IMG/VR virus record: IMGVR_UViG_650377933_000002
Length of the DNA stretch: 55,306 nt
DNA from: a virus
Taxonomy: Duplodnaviria > Heunggongvirae > Uroviricota > Caudoviricetes
Reading direction: 5' to 3' (one strand)
A model generated the notes under the pieces. The model was not told the DNA's origin and did no database searches. It saw nothing but the letters and a program-made list of their open reading frames with translations. The position numbers and the translations under genes are program-made. Of the stretch, positions 48,518 through 55,306 are shown piece by piece (positions within the stretch are counted from its first letter, which is position 1; each line of letters begins with the position of its first letter).

Positions 48518-51500
48518 ATGGGTAAAGGCAGCAGTAAGGGGCATACCCCGCGCGAAGCGAAGGACAACCTGAAGTCCACGCAGATGCTGAGCGTGATAGA
48601 CGCCATCAGTGAAGGGCCGATTGAAGGTCCGGTGGACGGATTAAAAAGTGTGCTGCTGAACAGTACGCCAGTGCTGGACAGTGAGGGGAATACCAATATC
48701 TCCGGTGTCACGGTGGTTTTCCGGGCAGGTGAGCAGGAGCAGACACCGCCGGAGGGATTTGAATCCTCCGGCTCCGAGACGGTGCTGGGTACGGAAGTGA
48801 AGTACGACACGCCGATTACCCGGACCATCACGTCTGCAAACATCGACCGTCTGCGCTTTACCTTCGGTGTGCAGGCACTGGTGGAAACCACCTCAAAGGG
48901 GGACCGGAATCCGTCGGAAGTCCGCCTGCTGGTTCAGATACAGCGTAACGGTGGCTGGGTGACGGAAAAAGACATCACCATTAAAGGCAAAACCACCTCA
49001 CAGTATCTGGCATCGGTGGTGGTGGGTAACCTGCCGCCGCGCCCGTTTAATATCCGGATGCGCAGGATGACACCGGACAGCACCACAGACCAGCTGCAGA
49101 ACAAAACGCTCTGGTCGTCATACACCGAAATCATCGATGTGAAACAGTGCTACCCGAACACGGCACTGGTCGGCGTGCAGGTGGACTCGGAACAGTTCGG
49201 CAGCCAGCAGGTGAGTCGTAATTATCATCTTCGCGGGCGCATTCTGCAGGTGCCGTCGAACTATAACCCGCAGACGCGACAATACAGCGGTATCTGGGAC
49301 GGAACGTTTAAGCCAGCATACAGCAACAACATGGCCTGGTGTCTGTGGGATATGCTGACCCATCCGCGCTACGGCATGGGAAAACGTCTTGGTGCGTCGG
49401 ATGTGGATAAATGGGCGCTGTATGTCATCGGCCAGTACTGCGACCAGTCGGTGCCGGACGGCTTTGGCGGCACGGAGCCGCGCATCACCTGTAATGCCTG
49501 GCTGACCACGCAGCGTAAGGCGTGGGATGTGCTCAGTGATTTCTGCTCGGCGATGCGCTGTATGCCGGTATGGAACGGGCAGACGCTGACGTTCGTGCAG
49601 GACCGACCATCAGATAAGGTGTGGACCTATAACCGCAGTAATGTGGTGATGCCGGATGATGGCGCGCCGTTCCGCTACAGCTTCAGCGCCCTGAAGGACC
49701 GCCATAATGCCGTTGAGGTGAACTGGATTGACCCGAACAACGGCTGGGAGACGGCGACAGAGCTTGTGGAGGATACGCAGGCCATTGCCCGTTACGGTCG
49801 TAATGTCACGAAGATGGATGCCTTTGGCTGTACCAGCCGGGGGCAGGCACACCGCGCCGGGCTGTGGCTGATTAAAACGGAACTGCTGGAGACGCAGACC
49901 GTGGATTTCAGCGTGGGTGCTGAAGGGCTTCGCCATGTACCGGGCGATGTCATTGAAATCTGCGATGATGACTATGCCGGTATCAGCACCGGTGGTCGCG
50001 TGCTGGCGGTGAACAGCCAGACCCGGACGCTGACGCTCGACCGTGAAATCACGCTGCCATCCTCCGGTACCACGCTGATAAGCCTGGTTGACGGAAGTGG
50101 TAATCCGGTCAGCGTGGAGGTTCAGTCCGTCACCGACGGACTTAAGGTGAAAGTGAATCGGGTTCCTGACGGCGTTGCAGAATACAGTGTGTGGGGGCTG
50201 AAGTTGCCGACGTTGCGTCAGCGCCTGTTCCGCTGTGTGAGTATCCGTGAGAACGATGACGGCACGTATGCCATCACTGCCGTGCAGCATGTACCGGAAA
50301 AAGAAGCCATCGTGGATAACGGGGCGCACTTTGACGGCGACCAGAGCGGCACGGTGAATGGTGTCACGCCGCCAGCGGTGCAGCACCTGACCGCCGAAGT
50401 CACCGCAGACAGCGGGGAATACCAGGTGCTGGCGCGCTGGGATACGCCGAAGGTGGTGAAGGGCGTGAGCTTTATGCTTCGCCTGACCGTGGCAGCGGAT
50501 GACGGCAGTGAGCGGCTGGTCAGCACGGCCCGGACGACGGAAACCACATACCGCTTCAGGCAGCTGGCTCTGGGAAATTACAGTCTGACAGTCCGGGCGG
50601 TAAATGCGTGGGGGCAGCAGGGCGATCCGGCGTCGGTATCGTTCCGGATTGCCGCACCGGCAGCACCATCGCGGATTGAGCTGACGCCGGGCTATTTTCA
50701 GATAACCGCCACGCCGCATCTTGCGGTTTATGATCCGACGGTACAGTTTGAGTTCTGGTTCTCGGAAAAGCGGATTACCGATATCAGGCAGGTTGAAACC
50801 ACAGCCCGCTATCTTGGTACGGCGCTGTACTGGATAGCCGCCAGTATCAATATCAAACCGGGCCATGATTATTACTTTTATATCCGCAGTGTGAACACCG
50901 TTGGCAAATCGGCATTCGTGGAGGCCGTCGGTCGGGCGAGCGATGATGCGGAAGGTTACCTGGATTTTTTCAAAGGCAAGATAACCGAATCCCATCTCGG
51001 CAAGGAGCTGCTGGAAAAAGTCGAGCTGACGGAGGATAACGCCAGCAGACTGGAGGAGTTTTCGAAAGAGTGGAAGGACGCCAACGATAAGTGGAATGCC
51101 ATGTGGGGCGTCAAAATTGAGCAGACCAAAGACGGCAAACATTATGTCGCGGGTATTGGCCTCAGCATGGAGGACACGGAGGAAGGCAAACTGAGTCAGT
51201 TTCTGGTTGCCGCTAACCGTATCGCATTTATTGACCCGGCAAACGGGAATGAAACGCCGATGTTTGTGGCGCAGGGCAATCAGATATTCATGAACGACGT
51301 GTTCCTGAAGCGCCTGACGGCCCCCACCATTACCAGTGGTGGCAGTCCTCCGGTATTTTCCCTGACATCAGACGGAAAGCTGACCGCTAAAAATGCGGAT
51401 ATCAGTGGCAGTGTGAATGCGAACGCCGGGACGCTCAACAATGTCACGGTAAATGAAAACTGTACGATTAAGGGCATGCTGGAGGCGACTCAGGTCAGAG

Positions 51501-51931
51501 GTGACTTCGTTAAAGCTGTATCCAAATCATTTCCGAAACAGGCTGGTACGTGGGGTAACACGGAAACACCAAACGGGACGGTTACAGTCACCATCAGCGA
51601 TGATCATAACTTTGACCGTCAAATCATTATTCCGCCCATTATCTTTAACGGAATAGCGTATAGCGATCCGGGAAGTGGTAATAACCCGGGAGGTACAAGA
51701 TACACGGGTTATGGTTTTGAAGTTCGCAAAAACGGTGTATTAATCGCATCCAGAGAAACTAAAGGGGCCATTCCCGGTAGCTACAGTGCGGTTATTGATA
51801 TGCCGAGTGGCAGGGGAAGCGTCACTCTGGAGTTTAAGGTTTTCCATAAAGGCAATCAGTGGGCAGGTAATATCACCGACTGTACGGTGATTGTGACCAA
51901 AAAAGCCGCTTCCGGCATCAGTATTCGTTGA
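48518..51931 (+). CDS. J: central tail fiber / host specificity protein J
   Basis: 1137-aa ORF; length, position and sequence character match lambda gpJ (1132 aa). Confidence 0.95.
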
Positions 51932-52000
51932 AATTGTTATAACCCATATAAGGGCACCAGAAATGGTGCCTTTTTTATTGCAGAAAAGCGAGAGGTAATT

Positions 52001-52600
52001 ATGCGTAAACTTTATGCCGCCATTTTGTCCGCAGCCATTTGTCTGGCCGTATCCGGTGCGCCTGCATGGGCATCTGAACATCAGTCCACGCTGAGCGCGG
52101 GGTATCTTCATGCCTCGACGAACGTTCCCGGCAGCGATGATCTTAACGGGATTAACGTGAAATACCGTTATGAGTTTACGGACACACTGGGGCTGGTGAC
52201 GTCATTCAGCTATGCAGGAGACAAGAATCGCCAGCTTACCCGTTACAGCGATACCCGCTGGCATGAAGATTCCGTGCGTAACCGCTGGTTCAGCGTGATG
52301 GTGGGGCCGTCTGTGCGCGTGAATGAATGGTTCAGCGCGTATGCGATGGCGGGTATGGCTTACAGCCGTGTGTCGACTTTCTCCGGGGATTATCTCCGCG
52401 TAACTGACAACAAGGGGAAAACGCACGACGTGCTGACCGGAAGTGATGACGGTCGCCACAGCAACACGTCTCTGGCGTGGGGAGCTGGCGTGCAGTTTAA
52501 CCCGACCGAATCCGTGGCCATTGATATTGCTTATGAAGGCTCCGGCAGTGGCGACTGGCGCACTGACGGTTTCATCGTGGGTGTCGGTTATAAGTTCTGA
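52001..52600 (+). CDS. lom: outer membrane protein Lom (Ail/Lom family)
   Basis: 199-aa ORF with signal peptide ([24 protein letters not shown]) and beta-barrel C-terminus ending ..VGVGYKF, as in lambda Lom. Confidence 0.9.
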
Positions 52601-52626
52601 TTAGCCAGGTAACACAGTGTTATGAC

Positions 52627-52655
52627 AGCCCGCCGGTTCAGGCGGGCTTTTTTGT
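52627..52655 (+). terminator. intrinsic terminator after lom
   Basis: AGCCCGCC GGTTCA GGCGGGCT hairpin followed by TTTTTTG. Confidence 0.7.
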
Positions 52656-52664
52656 GGGGTGAAT

Positions 52665-54725
52665 ATGGCAGTAAAGATTTCAGGTGTACTGAAAGACGGC
52701 ACAGGAAAACCGGTACAGAACTGCACAATCCAGCTGAAAGCAAAACGTAACAGCACCACAGTTGTGGTGAACACGGTGGCCTCAGAAAATCCGGATGAAG
52801 CCGGACGTTACAGCATGGATGTTGAGTATGGCCAGTACAGCGTCGCCCTGCTGGTTGAAGGTTTTCCGCCTTCACATGCCGGGACCATCACCGTGTATGA
52901 GGATTCTAAGCCGGGGACATTGAATGATTTTCTGGGCGCTGCAACAGAAGATGATGTTTGTCCGGAGGCACTGTATCGTTTTGAAAAGATGGTGGAAGAG
53001 GCGGCACGCAACGCTGAAGCCGCCTCTCAGAGCGCAGCGGCAGCAAAGAAATCAGAAACAGCAGCGGCATCGTCCAGGAACGCGGCGAAAACATCAGAGA
53101 CGAATGCAGGTAACAGCGCGAAAGCGGCAGCTTCTTCAAAAACAGCCGCACAAAACGCAGCAACAGCGGCAGAACGTTCAGAGACAAATGCCCGTGCGTC
53201 AGAAGAAGCCTCCGCAGACAGTGAAGAGGCTTCCCGCCGTAATGCAGAGTCAGCCGCTGAAAATGCCGGAGTCGCCACCACAAAAGCGCGGGAGGCCGCA
53301 GCAGACGCAACAAAGGCCGGGCAGAAAAAGGATGAGGCTCTGTCGGCAGCGACACGAGCTGAAAAGGCGGCAGACCGCGCAGAAGCCGCAGCGGAAGTGA
53401 CTGCAGAGCCCTGTGCGAATATAGTGCCGCCGCTGCCTGATGTGTGGATACCGTTTAACGATTCACTGGATATGATTGCGGGTTTTTCTCCGGGCTATAA
53501 AAAAATAGCTATTGGTGACGATGTGGTTCAGGTCGCCAGTGATAAACAGGTTAATTTCAGTCGCGCATCAACGGCAACATATATCAACAAATCTGGCGAA
53601 CTGAAAACGGCGGAAATTAATGAGCCGCGATTTGAGTGTGATGGCCTGCTTATTGAGGGACAAAGAACGAACTACATGCTCAATTCGGAAAGTCCAGCCA
53701 GCTGGGGGAAGTCATCAAACATGGATGTGCCCGAAACCGGGACGGATAGTTTTGGTTTTACTTATGGAAAGTTTGTCTGCAACGATTCTCTGGTTGGGCA
53801 AACTTCGGCTATTAATATGGCATCAATTGCTGCAACAAAGTCAGTTGATGTCTCAGGCGATAACAAGTACGTGACAACCTCATGCCGTTTTAAAACAGAA
53901 CGACAGGTAAGGTTACGTATACGGTTTGATAAGTATGATGGTAGTGCAACAACTTTTCTTGGCGATGCGTACATTGATACGCAAACGCTTGAAATTAGTA
54001 TGACAGGTGGTGCTGCCGGCAGAATTACGGCACGAGTCAGGAAGGATAAGACCACGGGCTGGATTTTTGCAGAGGCAACGATTCAGGCAATTGATGGTGA
54101 GTTAAAAATAGGCTCTCAGATACAGTATTCTCCTGGGCAGGGTGGGGCAACAGTATCTGGTGACTATATTTATCTTGCCACCCCACAAGTAGAGAATGGG
54201 CCGTGTGTATCATCATTTATTATTTCAGGAGGCAGCGCAACGACAAGAGCCAGTGATTTGGTTAGTATCCCCACCAGAAATAATCTTTATAAGTTACCAT
54301 TTACTTTTTTACTTGAGATTCATAAAAACTGGGATATTGCACCAAACGCCGCACCCCGCGTGTGGGATATAGCAGCAGCCAATACCGGGCAATCAGCAAT
54401 TGCAGCAATCAACAGAGGTAGTGGTAAGTTATATATGAGTCTGTCAAACCCTTCAGGCTCGTATGTTAATAGCGCAGCGACAGATGTATTTGCAGAGAAA
54501 ACCACATTTGGATGTATTGCAAAAGCTGATGGTCACTTTCATGTGGTGACAAATGGTAAAGCGGTTAATGAAGTTTATTGTGAATATAATGGCGTGACCG
54601 CTGATAAAAATATCCGATTTGGAGGGCAGACGAATACTGGAGAACGACATCTGTTTGGCCATATTCGCAATTTCCGCATATGGCATAAAGAATTAAATGA
54701 CAGGCAATTAAAAGAGGTCGTATGA
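52665..54725 (+). CDS. stf: side tail fiber protein (lambda Stf-like N-terminus, divergent C-terminal receptor-binding region)
   Basis: ORF 52659..54725; ATG at 52665 (MAVKISGVLKDGTGKPVQNCTIQLKAKRNSTTVVVNTV.SENPDEAGRYSMDVEYGQYSV..) matches the lambda Stf N-terminus, followed by an Ala/Ser-rich repeat shaft and an AT-richer C-terminal domain unlike lambda Stf. Confidence 0.8.
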   Translation: MAVKISGVLKDGTGKPVQNCTIQLKAKRNSTTVVVNTVASENPDEAGRYSMDVEYGQYSVALLVEGFPPSHAGTITVYEDSKPGTLNDFLGAATEDDVCPEALYRFEKMVEEAARNAEAASQSAAAAKKSETAAASSRNAAKTSETNAGNSAKAAASSKTAAQNAATAAERSETNARASEEASADSEEASRRNAESAAENAGVATTKAREAAADATKAGQKKDEALSAATRAEKAADRAEAAAEVTAEPCANIVPPLPDVWIPFNDSLDMIAGFSPGYKKIAIGDDVVQVASDKQVNFSRASTATYINKSGELKTAEINEPRFECDGLLIEGQRTNYMLNSESPASWGKSSNMDVPETGTDSFGFTYGKFVCNDSLVGQTSAINMASIAATKSVDVSGDNKYVTTSCRFKTERQVRLRIRFDKYDGSATTFLGDAYIDTQTLEISMTGGAAGRITARVRKDKTTGWIFAEATIQAIDGELKIGSQIQYSPGQGGATVSGDYIYLATPQVENGPCVSSFIISGGSATTRASDLVSIPTRNNLYKLPFTFLLEIHKNWDIAPNAAPRVWDIAAANTGQSAIAAINRGSGKLYMSLSNPSGSYVNSAATDVFAEKTTFGCIAKADGHFHVVTNGKAVNEVYCEYNGVTADKNIRFGGQTNTGERHLFGHIRNFRIWHKELNDRQLKEVV

Positions 54726-55000
54726 AAGATTTAACTTTGAAGTTTCATGACAAACTGCAGTTTAAGGCCTTCCTGTCATCTCTTGGCTGGGCGGAAGATG
54801 AAGACCTCCAGAATAAACTGTTAGTTGATGAAATTGGTTTCACCTACACAGAAACAGGGGTAACAGAAGAGGGAGAACCTGTCTGTATCCGGAATGATGG
54901 TTATTTTGTCAACATTCGCATTCTTGATGACTTGTTTGATGTTTCTGTATTCTCTGATTATGTCGTGGAGCTGGAAACACCGCTTCGGGAATGGAGCTGA
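54722..55000 (+). CDS. hypothetical protein in the tail-fiber-assembly (tfa) position
   Basis: 92-aa acidic ORF overlapping the stf stop; no resemblance to lambda Tfa that I can recognise. Confidence 0.35.
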   Translation: MKDLTLKFHDKLQFKAFLSSLGWAEDEDLQNKLLVDEIGFTYTETGVTEEGEPVCIRNDGYFVNIRILDDLFDVSVFSDYVVELETPLREWS

Positions 55001-55012
55001 AAGGAGGAAATA

Positions 55013-55306
55013 ATGGATATAAGCCCCTTACTTCATGCACTTTGTGCTGTGGCTGCGCAGATACTGGTTGGTCTTTTTACCGGAAACTGGGCTTACGGAG
55101 CGATAGCCGGTTGTACGTTCTTCATTGCGCGTGAACATACCCAGGCAGAATATCGCTGGATTGAAATGTTCGGGCATGGCAAGCGAATGAATATGCCGTG
55201 GTGGGGCGGTTTTGATCCGCGAGCTTGGGATGTGGCAAGCCTGATGGATTTTGCTGTGCCGGTGGTGGCGTGTCTGCTGGTCTGGCTGTTGGTTAATCGT
55301 GGGTGA
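55013..55306 (+). CDS. hypothetical membrane protein
   Basis: 97-aa ORF with two hydrophobic segments (..LCAVAAQILVGLF.. and ..FAVPVVACLLVWLLV..); stop codon at the window end. Confidence 0.35.
   Translation: MDISPLLHALCAVAAQILVGLFTGNWAYGAIAGCTFFIAREHTQAEYRWIEMFGHGKRMNMPWWGGFDPRAWDVASLMDFAVPVVACLLVWLLVNRG

Follow-up and report, generated by a model that had tools for sequence, protein, structure and literature searches.

The DNA analysed here, hereafter the window, is a stretch of 55,306 nucleotides from a tailed virus (Caudoviricetes; IMG/VR record IMGVR_UViG_650377933_000002) that carries near its end a side tail fibre gene (stf) directly followed by a gene for an acidic protein of 92 amino acids (aa), here designated orf92. 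The explanation that best accounts for the data as a whole, and to which we assign a probability of roughly one half, is that stf encodes a mosaic fibre in which a lambda-type anchor and shaft carry a lectin-type head, and that the orf92 product is a partner which would bind the conserved frame of the head module. The features on which this explanation is built are the following.

52665-54725, plus strand: stf, encoding 686 aa if read from the ATG, or 688 aa from the in-frame GTG at 52659
52665-53057, plus strand: N-terminal collar/anchor domain (StfN) and linker, matched by PF08400
52968-53414, plus strand: Ala/Glu/Ser-rich coiled-coil shaft, ca. residues 102-250, from composition and alignment with lambda
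53421-53534, plus strand: Pro-rich neck IVPPLPDVWIPFNDSLD, start of the transferable head module, from the start shared with unrelated fibres
53535-54251, plus strand: D1, a beta domain resembling the head spike fibre of gene transfer agents (GTA) and carbohydrate-binding modules (CBM), from matches to NF048003 and Rcc01080
53663-54613, plus strand: hypervariable, naturally exchanged head interior, Stf residues ca. 334-650, from comparison with Lambda_2G7a and IMG/VR loci
54342-54725, plus strand: D2, a probable LamG/concanavalin-A-like C-terminal domain ending in ...IRNFRIWHKELNDRQLKEVV, from PF13385
54713-54717, plus strand: Shine-Dalgarno motif AGAGG, read as part of the coupling of stf and orf92
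54722-54725, plus strand: ATGA overlap of the stf stop and the orf92 start, likewise
54722-55000, plus strand: orf92, encoding a 92-aa acidic alpha/beta protein, from the list of open reading frames (ORFs) and PHROG 1361

The proximal part of the fibre is of the lambda type. The family PF08400 covers Stf residues 3-133 (E 6.3e-68, 227 bits for a cut-off of 26.6), lambda orf-401 shares 75% identity with residues 1-158, and the Stf profile matches residues 1-94 of PDB 9e7m ('Tail fiber protein'), the solved collar domain of lambda Stf (E 1e-38). The initial annotation had placed the likeness to lambda Stf in about the first 100 residues; the match is real, but it extends further than was stated. 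In Ur-lambda, residues 1-91 of StfN form the collar on the tail tip and are followed by a linker and a trimeric coiled coil, the virion bears four trimeric side fibres, and the proximal coiled coil of lambda Stf spans residues 102-393 (PMC12617516). In the window protein, residues 101-250 consist of 35% Ala, 14% Glu and 11% Ser. Over 107 residues, the identity of this shaft with that of lambda, which is ca. 140 residues longer, reaches 53%. This region had been described as an Ala/Ser/Glu-rich repeat shaft, which holds for its composition; the repeat itself is only compositional or heptad-like, and no tandem repeat was found in the shaft at the DNA level.

The likeness to lambda ends with the coiled coil, near residue 250 (ca. 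53415-53421). No BLASTP alignment better than E 5.6 was obtained between Stf residues 251-686 and lambda orf-314, which represents the C-terminal half of lambda Stf, and the G+C content falls at the neck from 0.55 to 0.44. More precisely, the tip has a G+C content of 0.438 and orf92 one of 0.420, compared with 0.553 in the N-terminal part of stf and 0.557-0.558 in lom and J, so that an AT-richer C-terminal region unlike lambda Stf, as initially proposed, is confirmed. The low G+C content shared by the tip and orf92 fits a common origin of the two. Identity to fibres with wholly different N-termini begins exactly at the neck ('PPLPDVWIP'), from residue 251 on; 25 diverse tips all retain its residues P, D, V, W and P. 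The same tip occurs on a P2 gpH-type fibre (88% identity over 433 aa) and on the fibre of a third siphovirus type (54% identity), and homology with the lateral fibres of T1-like and T5-like phages likewise starts at the neck. The earlier suggestion of a receptor-binding module swapped relative to lambda is supported by the position of the junction at the end of the coiled coil, by the drop in G+C content and by the occurrence of the same tip on unrelated shafts.

Two loci illustrate how the module is carried elsewhere. In a P2-like prophage (GCA_031791655, L004 5001-7836), the gpH-type fibre with the head module is followed by orf92, by a homologue of the next window gene (orf97, see below) and by a 74-aa fragment of Caudo_TAP type, i.e. 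a remnant of the P2-type Tfa; this arrangement looks like the footprint of a cassette replacement of the P2-type tip together with its Tfa. In a Logan contig (SRR5125608, L093 1691-5297), two tandem head-module proteins precede the orf92 homologue, one of 679 aa with a shaft and one of 416 aa that corresponds approximately to neck, D1 and D2 with only ca. 23 residues ahead of them and without a shaft of its own.

Downstream of the neck, two domains were recognised. D1 is matched by NCBIfam NF048003 (GTA_spike_fiber) at Stf residues 329-529 with 56.8 bits for a cut-off of 36, and by Rcc01080 of the Rhodobacter gene transfer agent RcGTA (sequence of PDB 6TB9), with an E value of 3e-10 for the single protein and of 1.7e-41 when a profile of 25 sequences was used. 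Rcc01080 is a flexible appendage required for the adsorption of the gene transfer agent to capsular polysaccharide (PMC7296036, PMC5026251). The same profile also matches the unexplained C-terminal appendage of the distal tail protein gp17 of Shigella phage Sf11 (9occ), as well as two PDB chains that bear the names triplex gp45 and baseplate wedge gp46. D2, formed by the last ca. 130 residues, is probably of the LamG type: PF13385 (Laminin_G_3) matches the window protein with E values of 1.4e-5 to 3e-5 and 24.6-25.7 bits, which is below the gathering threshold of 27.6, and it matches 16 of 25 homologous tips at E <= 0.01, the best value being 6.7e-11. The conserved C-terminal motif RN[FL]RIWH..LT..Q is present in D2, and weak matches of the tip profile to pentraxins were also seen. 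The AlphaFold2 (AF2) model of the tip is all-beta, with a pLDDT (predicted local distance difference test) of 50, the underlying alignment being shallow and made of closely related sequences. Foldseek searches with this model returned a botulinum toxin lectin domain, CBM40, C-reactive protein, galectin-8 and a neurexin LNS domain; these are single-domain matches with a low whole-query TM-score to a low-confidence model and carry little weight, giving weak support to concanavalin-A-like (ConA-like) beta sandwiches.

Modelling by others points to a similar head. Based on AlphaFold models, Humolli et al. (2025) described in Gp22 of phage IrisVonRoten a galectin-like domain that protrudes from the fibre end and represents a possible additional receptor-binding domain (PMC11990801), and the tip of this protein is homologous to that of the window (E 2e-196 to the tip profile). 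In the BASEL papers, O-antigen or similar glycans are argued to be the targets of such hypervariable lateral fibres in siphoviruses. From these homologies, the head of the window fibre is likely to bind glycans, with three heads per fibre likely providing multivalent and reversible binding. A head that binds a protein receptor, or one that is enzymatic, appears rather improbable. Lambda Stf has been reported to bind OmpC (PMC12617516), and LamG and jelly-roll folds can bind proteins too; against this, the sole characterised homologue mediates binding to capsular polysaccharide, the fold relatives are CBMs, pentraxins, a galectin and lectin domains of toxins, and the BASEL authors associate hypervariability of the kind described below with lateral fibres that target O-antigen. 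An enzymatic function is further disfavoured by the fact that Pfam and NCBIfam searches detected no catalytic domain in the tip.

In the proposed mechanism, Stf residues 1-250, which comprise the lambda-type collar and trimeric coiled coil, would plug the fibre into the tail tip, with the neck, D1 and D2 following, and the three chains of each fibre would each end in a lectin-type head of their own. The heads would bind surface polysaccharide (O-antigen, lipopolysaccharide or capsule) reversibly and multivalently, and this binding would help the phage to hold onto or to pass the glycan layer before J meets its receptor in the outer membrane. Specificity would reside in the hypervariable interior of D1 and D2 (ca. 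53663-54613), which would recombine between conserved flanks. The product of orf92, which is translationally coupled to stf, would bind the conserved frame of the module (either the neck or D2 at its conserved end) and not the variable receptor surface; it would act as a generic assembly factor, or as a small cap subunit at the fibre end, rather than as a chaperone matched to one allele.

The location of the variable part is best seen by comparison with Lambda_2G7a, a close relative of phage 21, whose DNA is similar to that of the window (ca. 94% identity) only at positions 52648-53662 and 54614-55306. At the protein level, identity is as follows.

Stf residues 1-250: 94-100% identity
Stf residues 251-350: about 75% identity
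Stf residues 351-650: 20-50% identity
Stf residues 651-686: 81% identity
orf92: 90% identity
orf97: 100% identity

Since DNA similarity is confined to the flanks, the natural unit of exchange is the D1/D2 interior, and orf92 lies in the conserved right-hand flank. A similar picture emerges from 80 IMG/VR loci, in which mean identity reaches 89% among the orf92 homologues and 74% in the first 100 residues of the module, compared with 21% in its middle and 35% in its C-terminal region. In these loci the Spearman correlation between orf92 and the variable regions is ca. 0, and across lineages the divergence of orf92 follows that of the neck region better than that of the variable regions. The gene is therefore not allele-specific, and it moves together with the tip only when the module family is considered as a whole.

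These figures bear directly on the function that had been assigned to the downstream gene, namely that of a cognate chaperone. In that reading, the orf92 product would be an allele-specific chaperone or adhesin serving the receptor surface, in the manner of lambda Tfa, Mu U, P2 G or T4 gp38. The gene does occupy the position of lambda tfa and is coupled to stf, it shares the low G+C content of the tip, and in the P2-like prophage it arrived together with the tip, displacing the P2-type Tfa. However, in Lambda_2G7a orf92 is conserved at 90% identity beside head interiors of 20-50%, the IMG/VR loci show the same discrepancy, and the protein has no likeness to Caudo_TAP, to gp38 or to any solved chaperone. 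Such a role is thus very unlikely; what remains of the earlier claim is that the downstream gene is tied to the tip type in all loci examined, while the matching of individual alleles is not supported.

That orf92 is a real gene follows from its dN/dS ratio, from a confident alpha/beta model and from its membership in PHROG 1361. Compared with the copy of the P2-like prophage, dN/dS is 0.24, indicative of purifying selection; the AF2 model is alpha/beta with a pLDDT of 90; and PHROG 1361, a family of 'unknown function', matches residues 1-91 of 92 (E 3.2e-42). The protein has a pI of 4.17, with 20 Asp and Glu for 8 Lys and Arg, does not align with lambda Tfa in BLASTP and matches no Pfam family at E <= 0.1, Caudo_TAP (PF02413) included, in full agreement with its description as an acidic non-Tfa protein in the position of a chaperone gene. 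Neither of the two findings that would have returned this region to the lambda type, namely an alignment of the Stf C-terminus with lambda Stf or homology of orf92 with Tfa, was thus obtained. A profile search of a library of 1.84 billion proteins gave 86 matches to the orf92 profile; the relatives retrieved are ca. 85-110 aa long and share the motifs M[KR]DLxL[KR]F, GY[FH]VN[IL]R and, at the C-terminus, PxR[VE]W[AS]. Longer matches were considered as possible Rosetta-stone fusions, but the four that were checked are PKD or TPR repeat proteins and were discarded as spurious, as were two archaeal matches to the family; no fusion of a tip with orf92 was found among the fetched proteins. With the predicted structure, Foldseek against BFVD returned only uncharacterised phage proteins; a sequence search of the PDB gave no match, and a PDB profile match to telomerase p19 (E 0.18) was judged to be noise. 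Taken together, these searches revealed no likeness in sequence or fold to a characterised fibre chaperone (Caudo_TAP/Tfa, gp38 or the solved chaperones).

The association of orf92 with the head module is nevertheless strict. In every locus examined (ca. 100 loci from at least 8 phage groups), a gene of the orf92 family directly follows the fibre gene that bears the tip, and the stop and start of the two genes abut or, usually, overlap in other loci as in the window. This arrangement occurs in prophages of Leclercia, Silvania and Atlantibacter, in the prophage of the third siphovirus type, where the fibre gene lies upstream of the tail tube gene, in the T5-like phage AKFV33 and one rV5-like myovirus, in phages tonn, KarlJaspers and IrisVonRoten and in two environmental contigs (L093 and L094), the tips of tonn and KarlJaspers matching the tip profile with E values of 1e-149 to 1e-165. 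Even where the orf92 relatives are only ca. 30% identical, a tip-bearing fibre gene was found upstream in 80 of 80 IMG/VR loci; in a representative of these, a tail-tip-fibre gene lies upstream of the orf92 relative and a fibre gene with a Peptidase_S74 (S74) domain downstream. In GenBank, the family is present in 147 phage records, in which the homologue is annotated as hypothetical almost everywhere, and all but one of 60 sampled rows with an annotation adjoin a feature named tail, tail-fibre or side-tail-fibre protein; for Dhillonvirus and Queuovirinae, the placement next to the fibre is taken from such annotations. Narrower searches for loci of the family returned mostly a single clade plus five enterobacterial prophage loci. 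In Leclercia adecarboxylata NCTC13032 (L099 2840-4501), a decaying fibre gene is broken into four ORF fragments that all match the tip profile, and the orf92 homologue is intact.

The main rival to the explanation favoured here holds that the orf92 product serves as an adaptor through which a second, distal fibre is attached to the end of the first one, giving a branched fibre, and that it is a leftover or a plain cap in phage 21 and Perceval. In the T5-like, T1-like and metagenomic siphovirus loci examined and in one type of prophage, the gene that follows orf92 indeed encodes an S74 (intramolecular-chaperone) fibre or a short S74 protein. The S74-domain genes located after an orf92 homologue in T1-like, T5-like and prophage loci are:

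L090, 5270-5947
L091, 5289-7013
L092, 4792-5466
L007, 5341-6369
L011, 4315-5313

In AKFV33, a second tail-fibre gene follows the orf92 homologue, as judged by annotation alone. In addition, Humolli et al. modelled the distal T-shaped fibre Gp24 of IrisVonRoten as attached to the proximal Gp22, and the gene of the orf92 homologue is located between the two (PMC11990801). Four of six downstream proteins that were compared (from T1-like and T5-like phages and one prophage type) start with a similar motif, T..IP.DIT.LK, which might be a docking peptide. On the other hand, phage 21, Perceval, the P2-like prophage and the contigs L093 and L094 have no gene for a distal fibre after orf92, and orf92 is still under purifying selection there (omega 0.24-0.27). 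The proximal and distal fibres of phage AnnaHegner are numbered consecutively (Gp9 and Gp10; PMC11990801), which may also count against an adaptor if Gp9 bears this tip. Taken together, we consider an adaptor function unlikely.

Another possibility is that orf92 has nothing to do with the fibre and is a hitch-hiking accessory gene (for instance for anti-defence or host takeover) that is kept in the conserved right-hand recombination flank. This would be compatible with the lack of any functional annotation among the Pfam, PHROG, NCBIfam or GenBank matches, with the lack of covariation between orf92 and the tip, and with the behaviour of the neighbouring orf97 as an independent gene. Morons are, however, rarely so strictly linked: adjacency to the fibre gene and the stop/start overlap are maintained in temperate and virulent siphoviruses and myoviruses down to ca. 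30% identity. Furthermore, the PADLOC defence models matched neither orf92 nor orf97 nor the tip. We thus regard a hitch-hiking gene as improbable.

Extending the favoured explanation beyond the window, it is conceivable, although we advance this only tentatively, that the 92-aa proteins of the PHROG 1361 type form an unrecognised pan-phage family whose members, whatever the allele, are required as assembly factor, cap or docking adaptor by a portable lectin-head module composed of neck, CBM-like and LamG domains in lambdoid, P2-like, rV5-like, T5-like and T1-like phages. In such a system, the conserved orf92 and neck would provide both a functional frame and the homology arms for swaps of the interior, allowing a plug-and-play change of host range.

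Several points weigh against the reading of a lectin-headed fibre with a frame-binding partner. Autonomous beta-sandwich domains often fold unaided, which weakens the view of orf92 as a chaperone of any kind. The missing covariation between orf92 and the head interior would also fit a gene that merely lies within a conserved recombination flank. Proteins that contain D1 only have no orf92 partner: rcc01080 of RcGTA is followed by capsule genes, and no partner has been described for the distal tail protein gp17 of Sf11. The picture of two lectin domains is drawn from profile matches, the LamG match of the window protein being below the cut-off and the AF2 model of the tip having a pLDDT of 50. 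Finally, the glycan nature of the receptor is deduced from the fold family only, and lambda's own Stf has been reported to bind OmpC (PMC12617516).

With regard to its biological effect, the non-lambda head makes an adsorption specificity, and hence a host range, different from that of lambda plausible. The central fibre may contribute as well. Over the whole protein, J and lambda J share 89% identity, but the last ca. 150 residues of J (51450-51931, residues ca. 985-1137) diverge strongly, with several gaps and a G+C content of ca. 0.45; its receptor-binding domain is therefore also a different allele, and central-fibre specificity may differ from that of lambda. In phages 4A7, 1W, 3W and D2, an insertion sequence (IS) truncates stf near residue 643, yet all of them were isolated as phages; Lambda_4C10 also carries an IS in the 3' end of stf. 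Judged by their sequences, these relatives are natural stf knock-outs, and because they were still isolated as phages, the fibre is probably an accessory adsorption device. In phage 4A7 (NC_049946, L097 2876-5292), the IS at the 3' end of stf carries three transposase ORFs, and orf92 and orf97 are 100% identical downstream of it.

The genes that surround stf and orf92 correspond to a lambda-type tail end that occupies the final 7 kb of the window. The remaining features of this region are:

48518-51931, plus strand: J, from the ORF list (89% identity to lambda J)
52001-52600, plus strand: lom, from the ORF list (PF06316, E 1e-119)
52627-52648, plus strand: terminator-like hairpin AGCCCGCCGGTTCAGGCGGGCT followed by a T-run, after lom and upstream of stf
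55013-55306, plus strand: orf97, 97 aa, from the ORF list, its end coinciding exactly with the window edge

The position of stf after J and lom follows the order of the lambdoid tail operon, as deduced from gene order and from the matches of J and Lom. Translation of stf likely starts at the ATG at 52665, giving MAVKISG... as in lambda and phage 21; this ATG is preceded by GGGGTG and by the hairpin that follows lom. A second terminator-like hairpin is found at 51950-51973, directly after J, and both hairpins are positioned as annotated in phage 21. Terminator-like sites numbered 4 in the scan compared with 3.9 in shuffled sequence, so that the hairpin calls rest on position only; the same scan detected none between stf, orf92 and orf97. 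A 510-aa antisense ORF inside J (49610-51142, minus strand) and several shorter ones inside stf are taken to be chance ORFs of GC-rich coding sequence.

The gene orf97 belongs to PHROG 1443, of unknown function, and is annotated in phage 21 as a 'putative membrane protein' with two transmembrane domains (2 TMDs). It accompanies the tip and orf92 in lambdoid and P2-like prophages, with 81% identity in the P2-like cassette, and was considered as a possible part of the head module. This was rejected: its G+C content (0.529) is backbone-like and unlike that of the tip and orf92, the virulent-phage loci examined lacked it beside orf92, and a homologue of 79% identity follows the tailspike gene of the P22-like phage Gally, where neither the tip nor orf92 is present. 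It is thus probably an independent neighbour. Weaker homologues occur near fibre genes of Halomonas and Aeromonas phages.

On sequence grounds, the locus is the side-tail-fibre end of the tail operon of a lambdoid prophage of the phage 21/Perceval type, and its fibre is of a known and common type. Positions 52001-55306 match Escherichia phage Perceval (OV696612), which resides in E. coli LF82 as a prophage, with 100% nucleotide identity, and from 52648 onward the window is 98.6% identical to the classical phage 21 (OL657228). Accordingly, stf is 100% identical in DNA to PERCE_22, and Stf is 98% identical to CPT_21_22; it also belongs to PHROG 1419, 'tail protein' (E = 0). Directly past orf97, on the opposite strand, lies the iron/manganese transporter operon sitDCBA in both Perceval (L001 9398-12847) and phage 21 (L002 7752-11201), and this operon is an expressed moron in LF82 lysogens according to the paper on the LF82 prophage. 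Among 5426 complete E. coli genomes, the segment made of the tip and orf92 has megablast matches in 1713, with at least 80% of the segment covered in 451. The fibre tip and orf92 are not discussed in the announcement of the phage 21 genome or in the LF82 prophage paper, and orf92 is not treated in either BASEL paper. As to related phages, the DT57C structure paper numbers its two fibre genes consecutively without listing a small ORF between them, the AKFV33 proteomics paper analysed only four large gel bands, and the Eligo base-editing paper deals with chimeric fibres of other types.

Mosaicism of tail fibres is textbook knowledge. What is added here is that the head domains have been assigned, that mosaicism has been mapped at two nested levels, and that a family of uncharacterised partners, strictly linked to the module but independent of the allele, has been recognised. 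The fibre in question, a lambda-type anchor with lectin-type heads, is very common. Its accessory gene is not tfa; across many phage groups it is strictly tied to the head module, yet it does not follow receptor specificity. Should fibres of this type depend on orf92 to function, engineered or chimeric versions designed for phage therapy or for delivery particles must carry it, and the points between which natural exchange takes place (ca. 53663 and 54613) indicate possible sites for swapping receptor-binding interiors. In addition, phage 21 on E. coli K-12 would offer a tractable model for a domain family that is otherwise known functionally only from the gene transfer agent of Rhodobacter.

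Several known systems are comparable to the locus described here. RcGTA shares with it a homologous D1, in Rcc01080 (GhsB), which is a flexible surface appendage for adsorption to the polysaccharide capsule. Unlike the fibre, Rcc01080 sits on the head, with one subunit per spike, lacks the neck motif, a LamG-like D2 and an orf92 partner, and is resolved experimentally only at residues 2-10. With the known chaperones (Tfa/Caudo_TAP of lambda, Mu U and P2 G; T4 gp38 and gp57A; the intramolecular S74 chaperones), orf92 has in common that it is small, located directly downstream of the fibre gene and co-transferred with the tip. The trans-acting 'chaperone caps' of Alteromonas phages V22 and A5 are IMC-like proteins of ca. 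176 aa to which orf92 bears no likeness, and they are described as cognate to their fibres, whereas orf92 does not covary with the receptor-binding region.

Among phages, lambda has the same slot (J, lom, stf and an accessory gene), a homologous collar and an Ala-rich coiled coil, and the same accessory role in adsorption is expected for the window Stf. Its tip is T4 gp37-like and unrelated to the distal half of the window Stf, which has lectin-type beta domains instead. The lateral fibres of IrisVonRoten (Bas32), of T1-like phages, Dhillonvirus and Queuovirinae have different N-terminal anchors and are followed by an orf92 homologue of ca. 50% identity. Beyond orf92, these phages also carry a gene for a distal fibre of the S74 type that is missing from phage 21 and Perceval. 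In the records of the latter two, the fibre is named 'side tail fiber' or 'tail fiber protein', orf92 is hypothetical and orf97 is a 'putative membrane protein'; both phages carry the same orf92 and orf97 after the fibre gene, and no structural difference separates them from the window.

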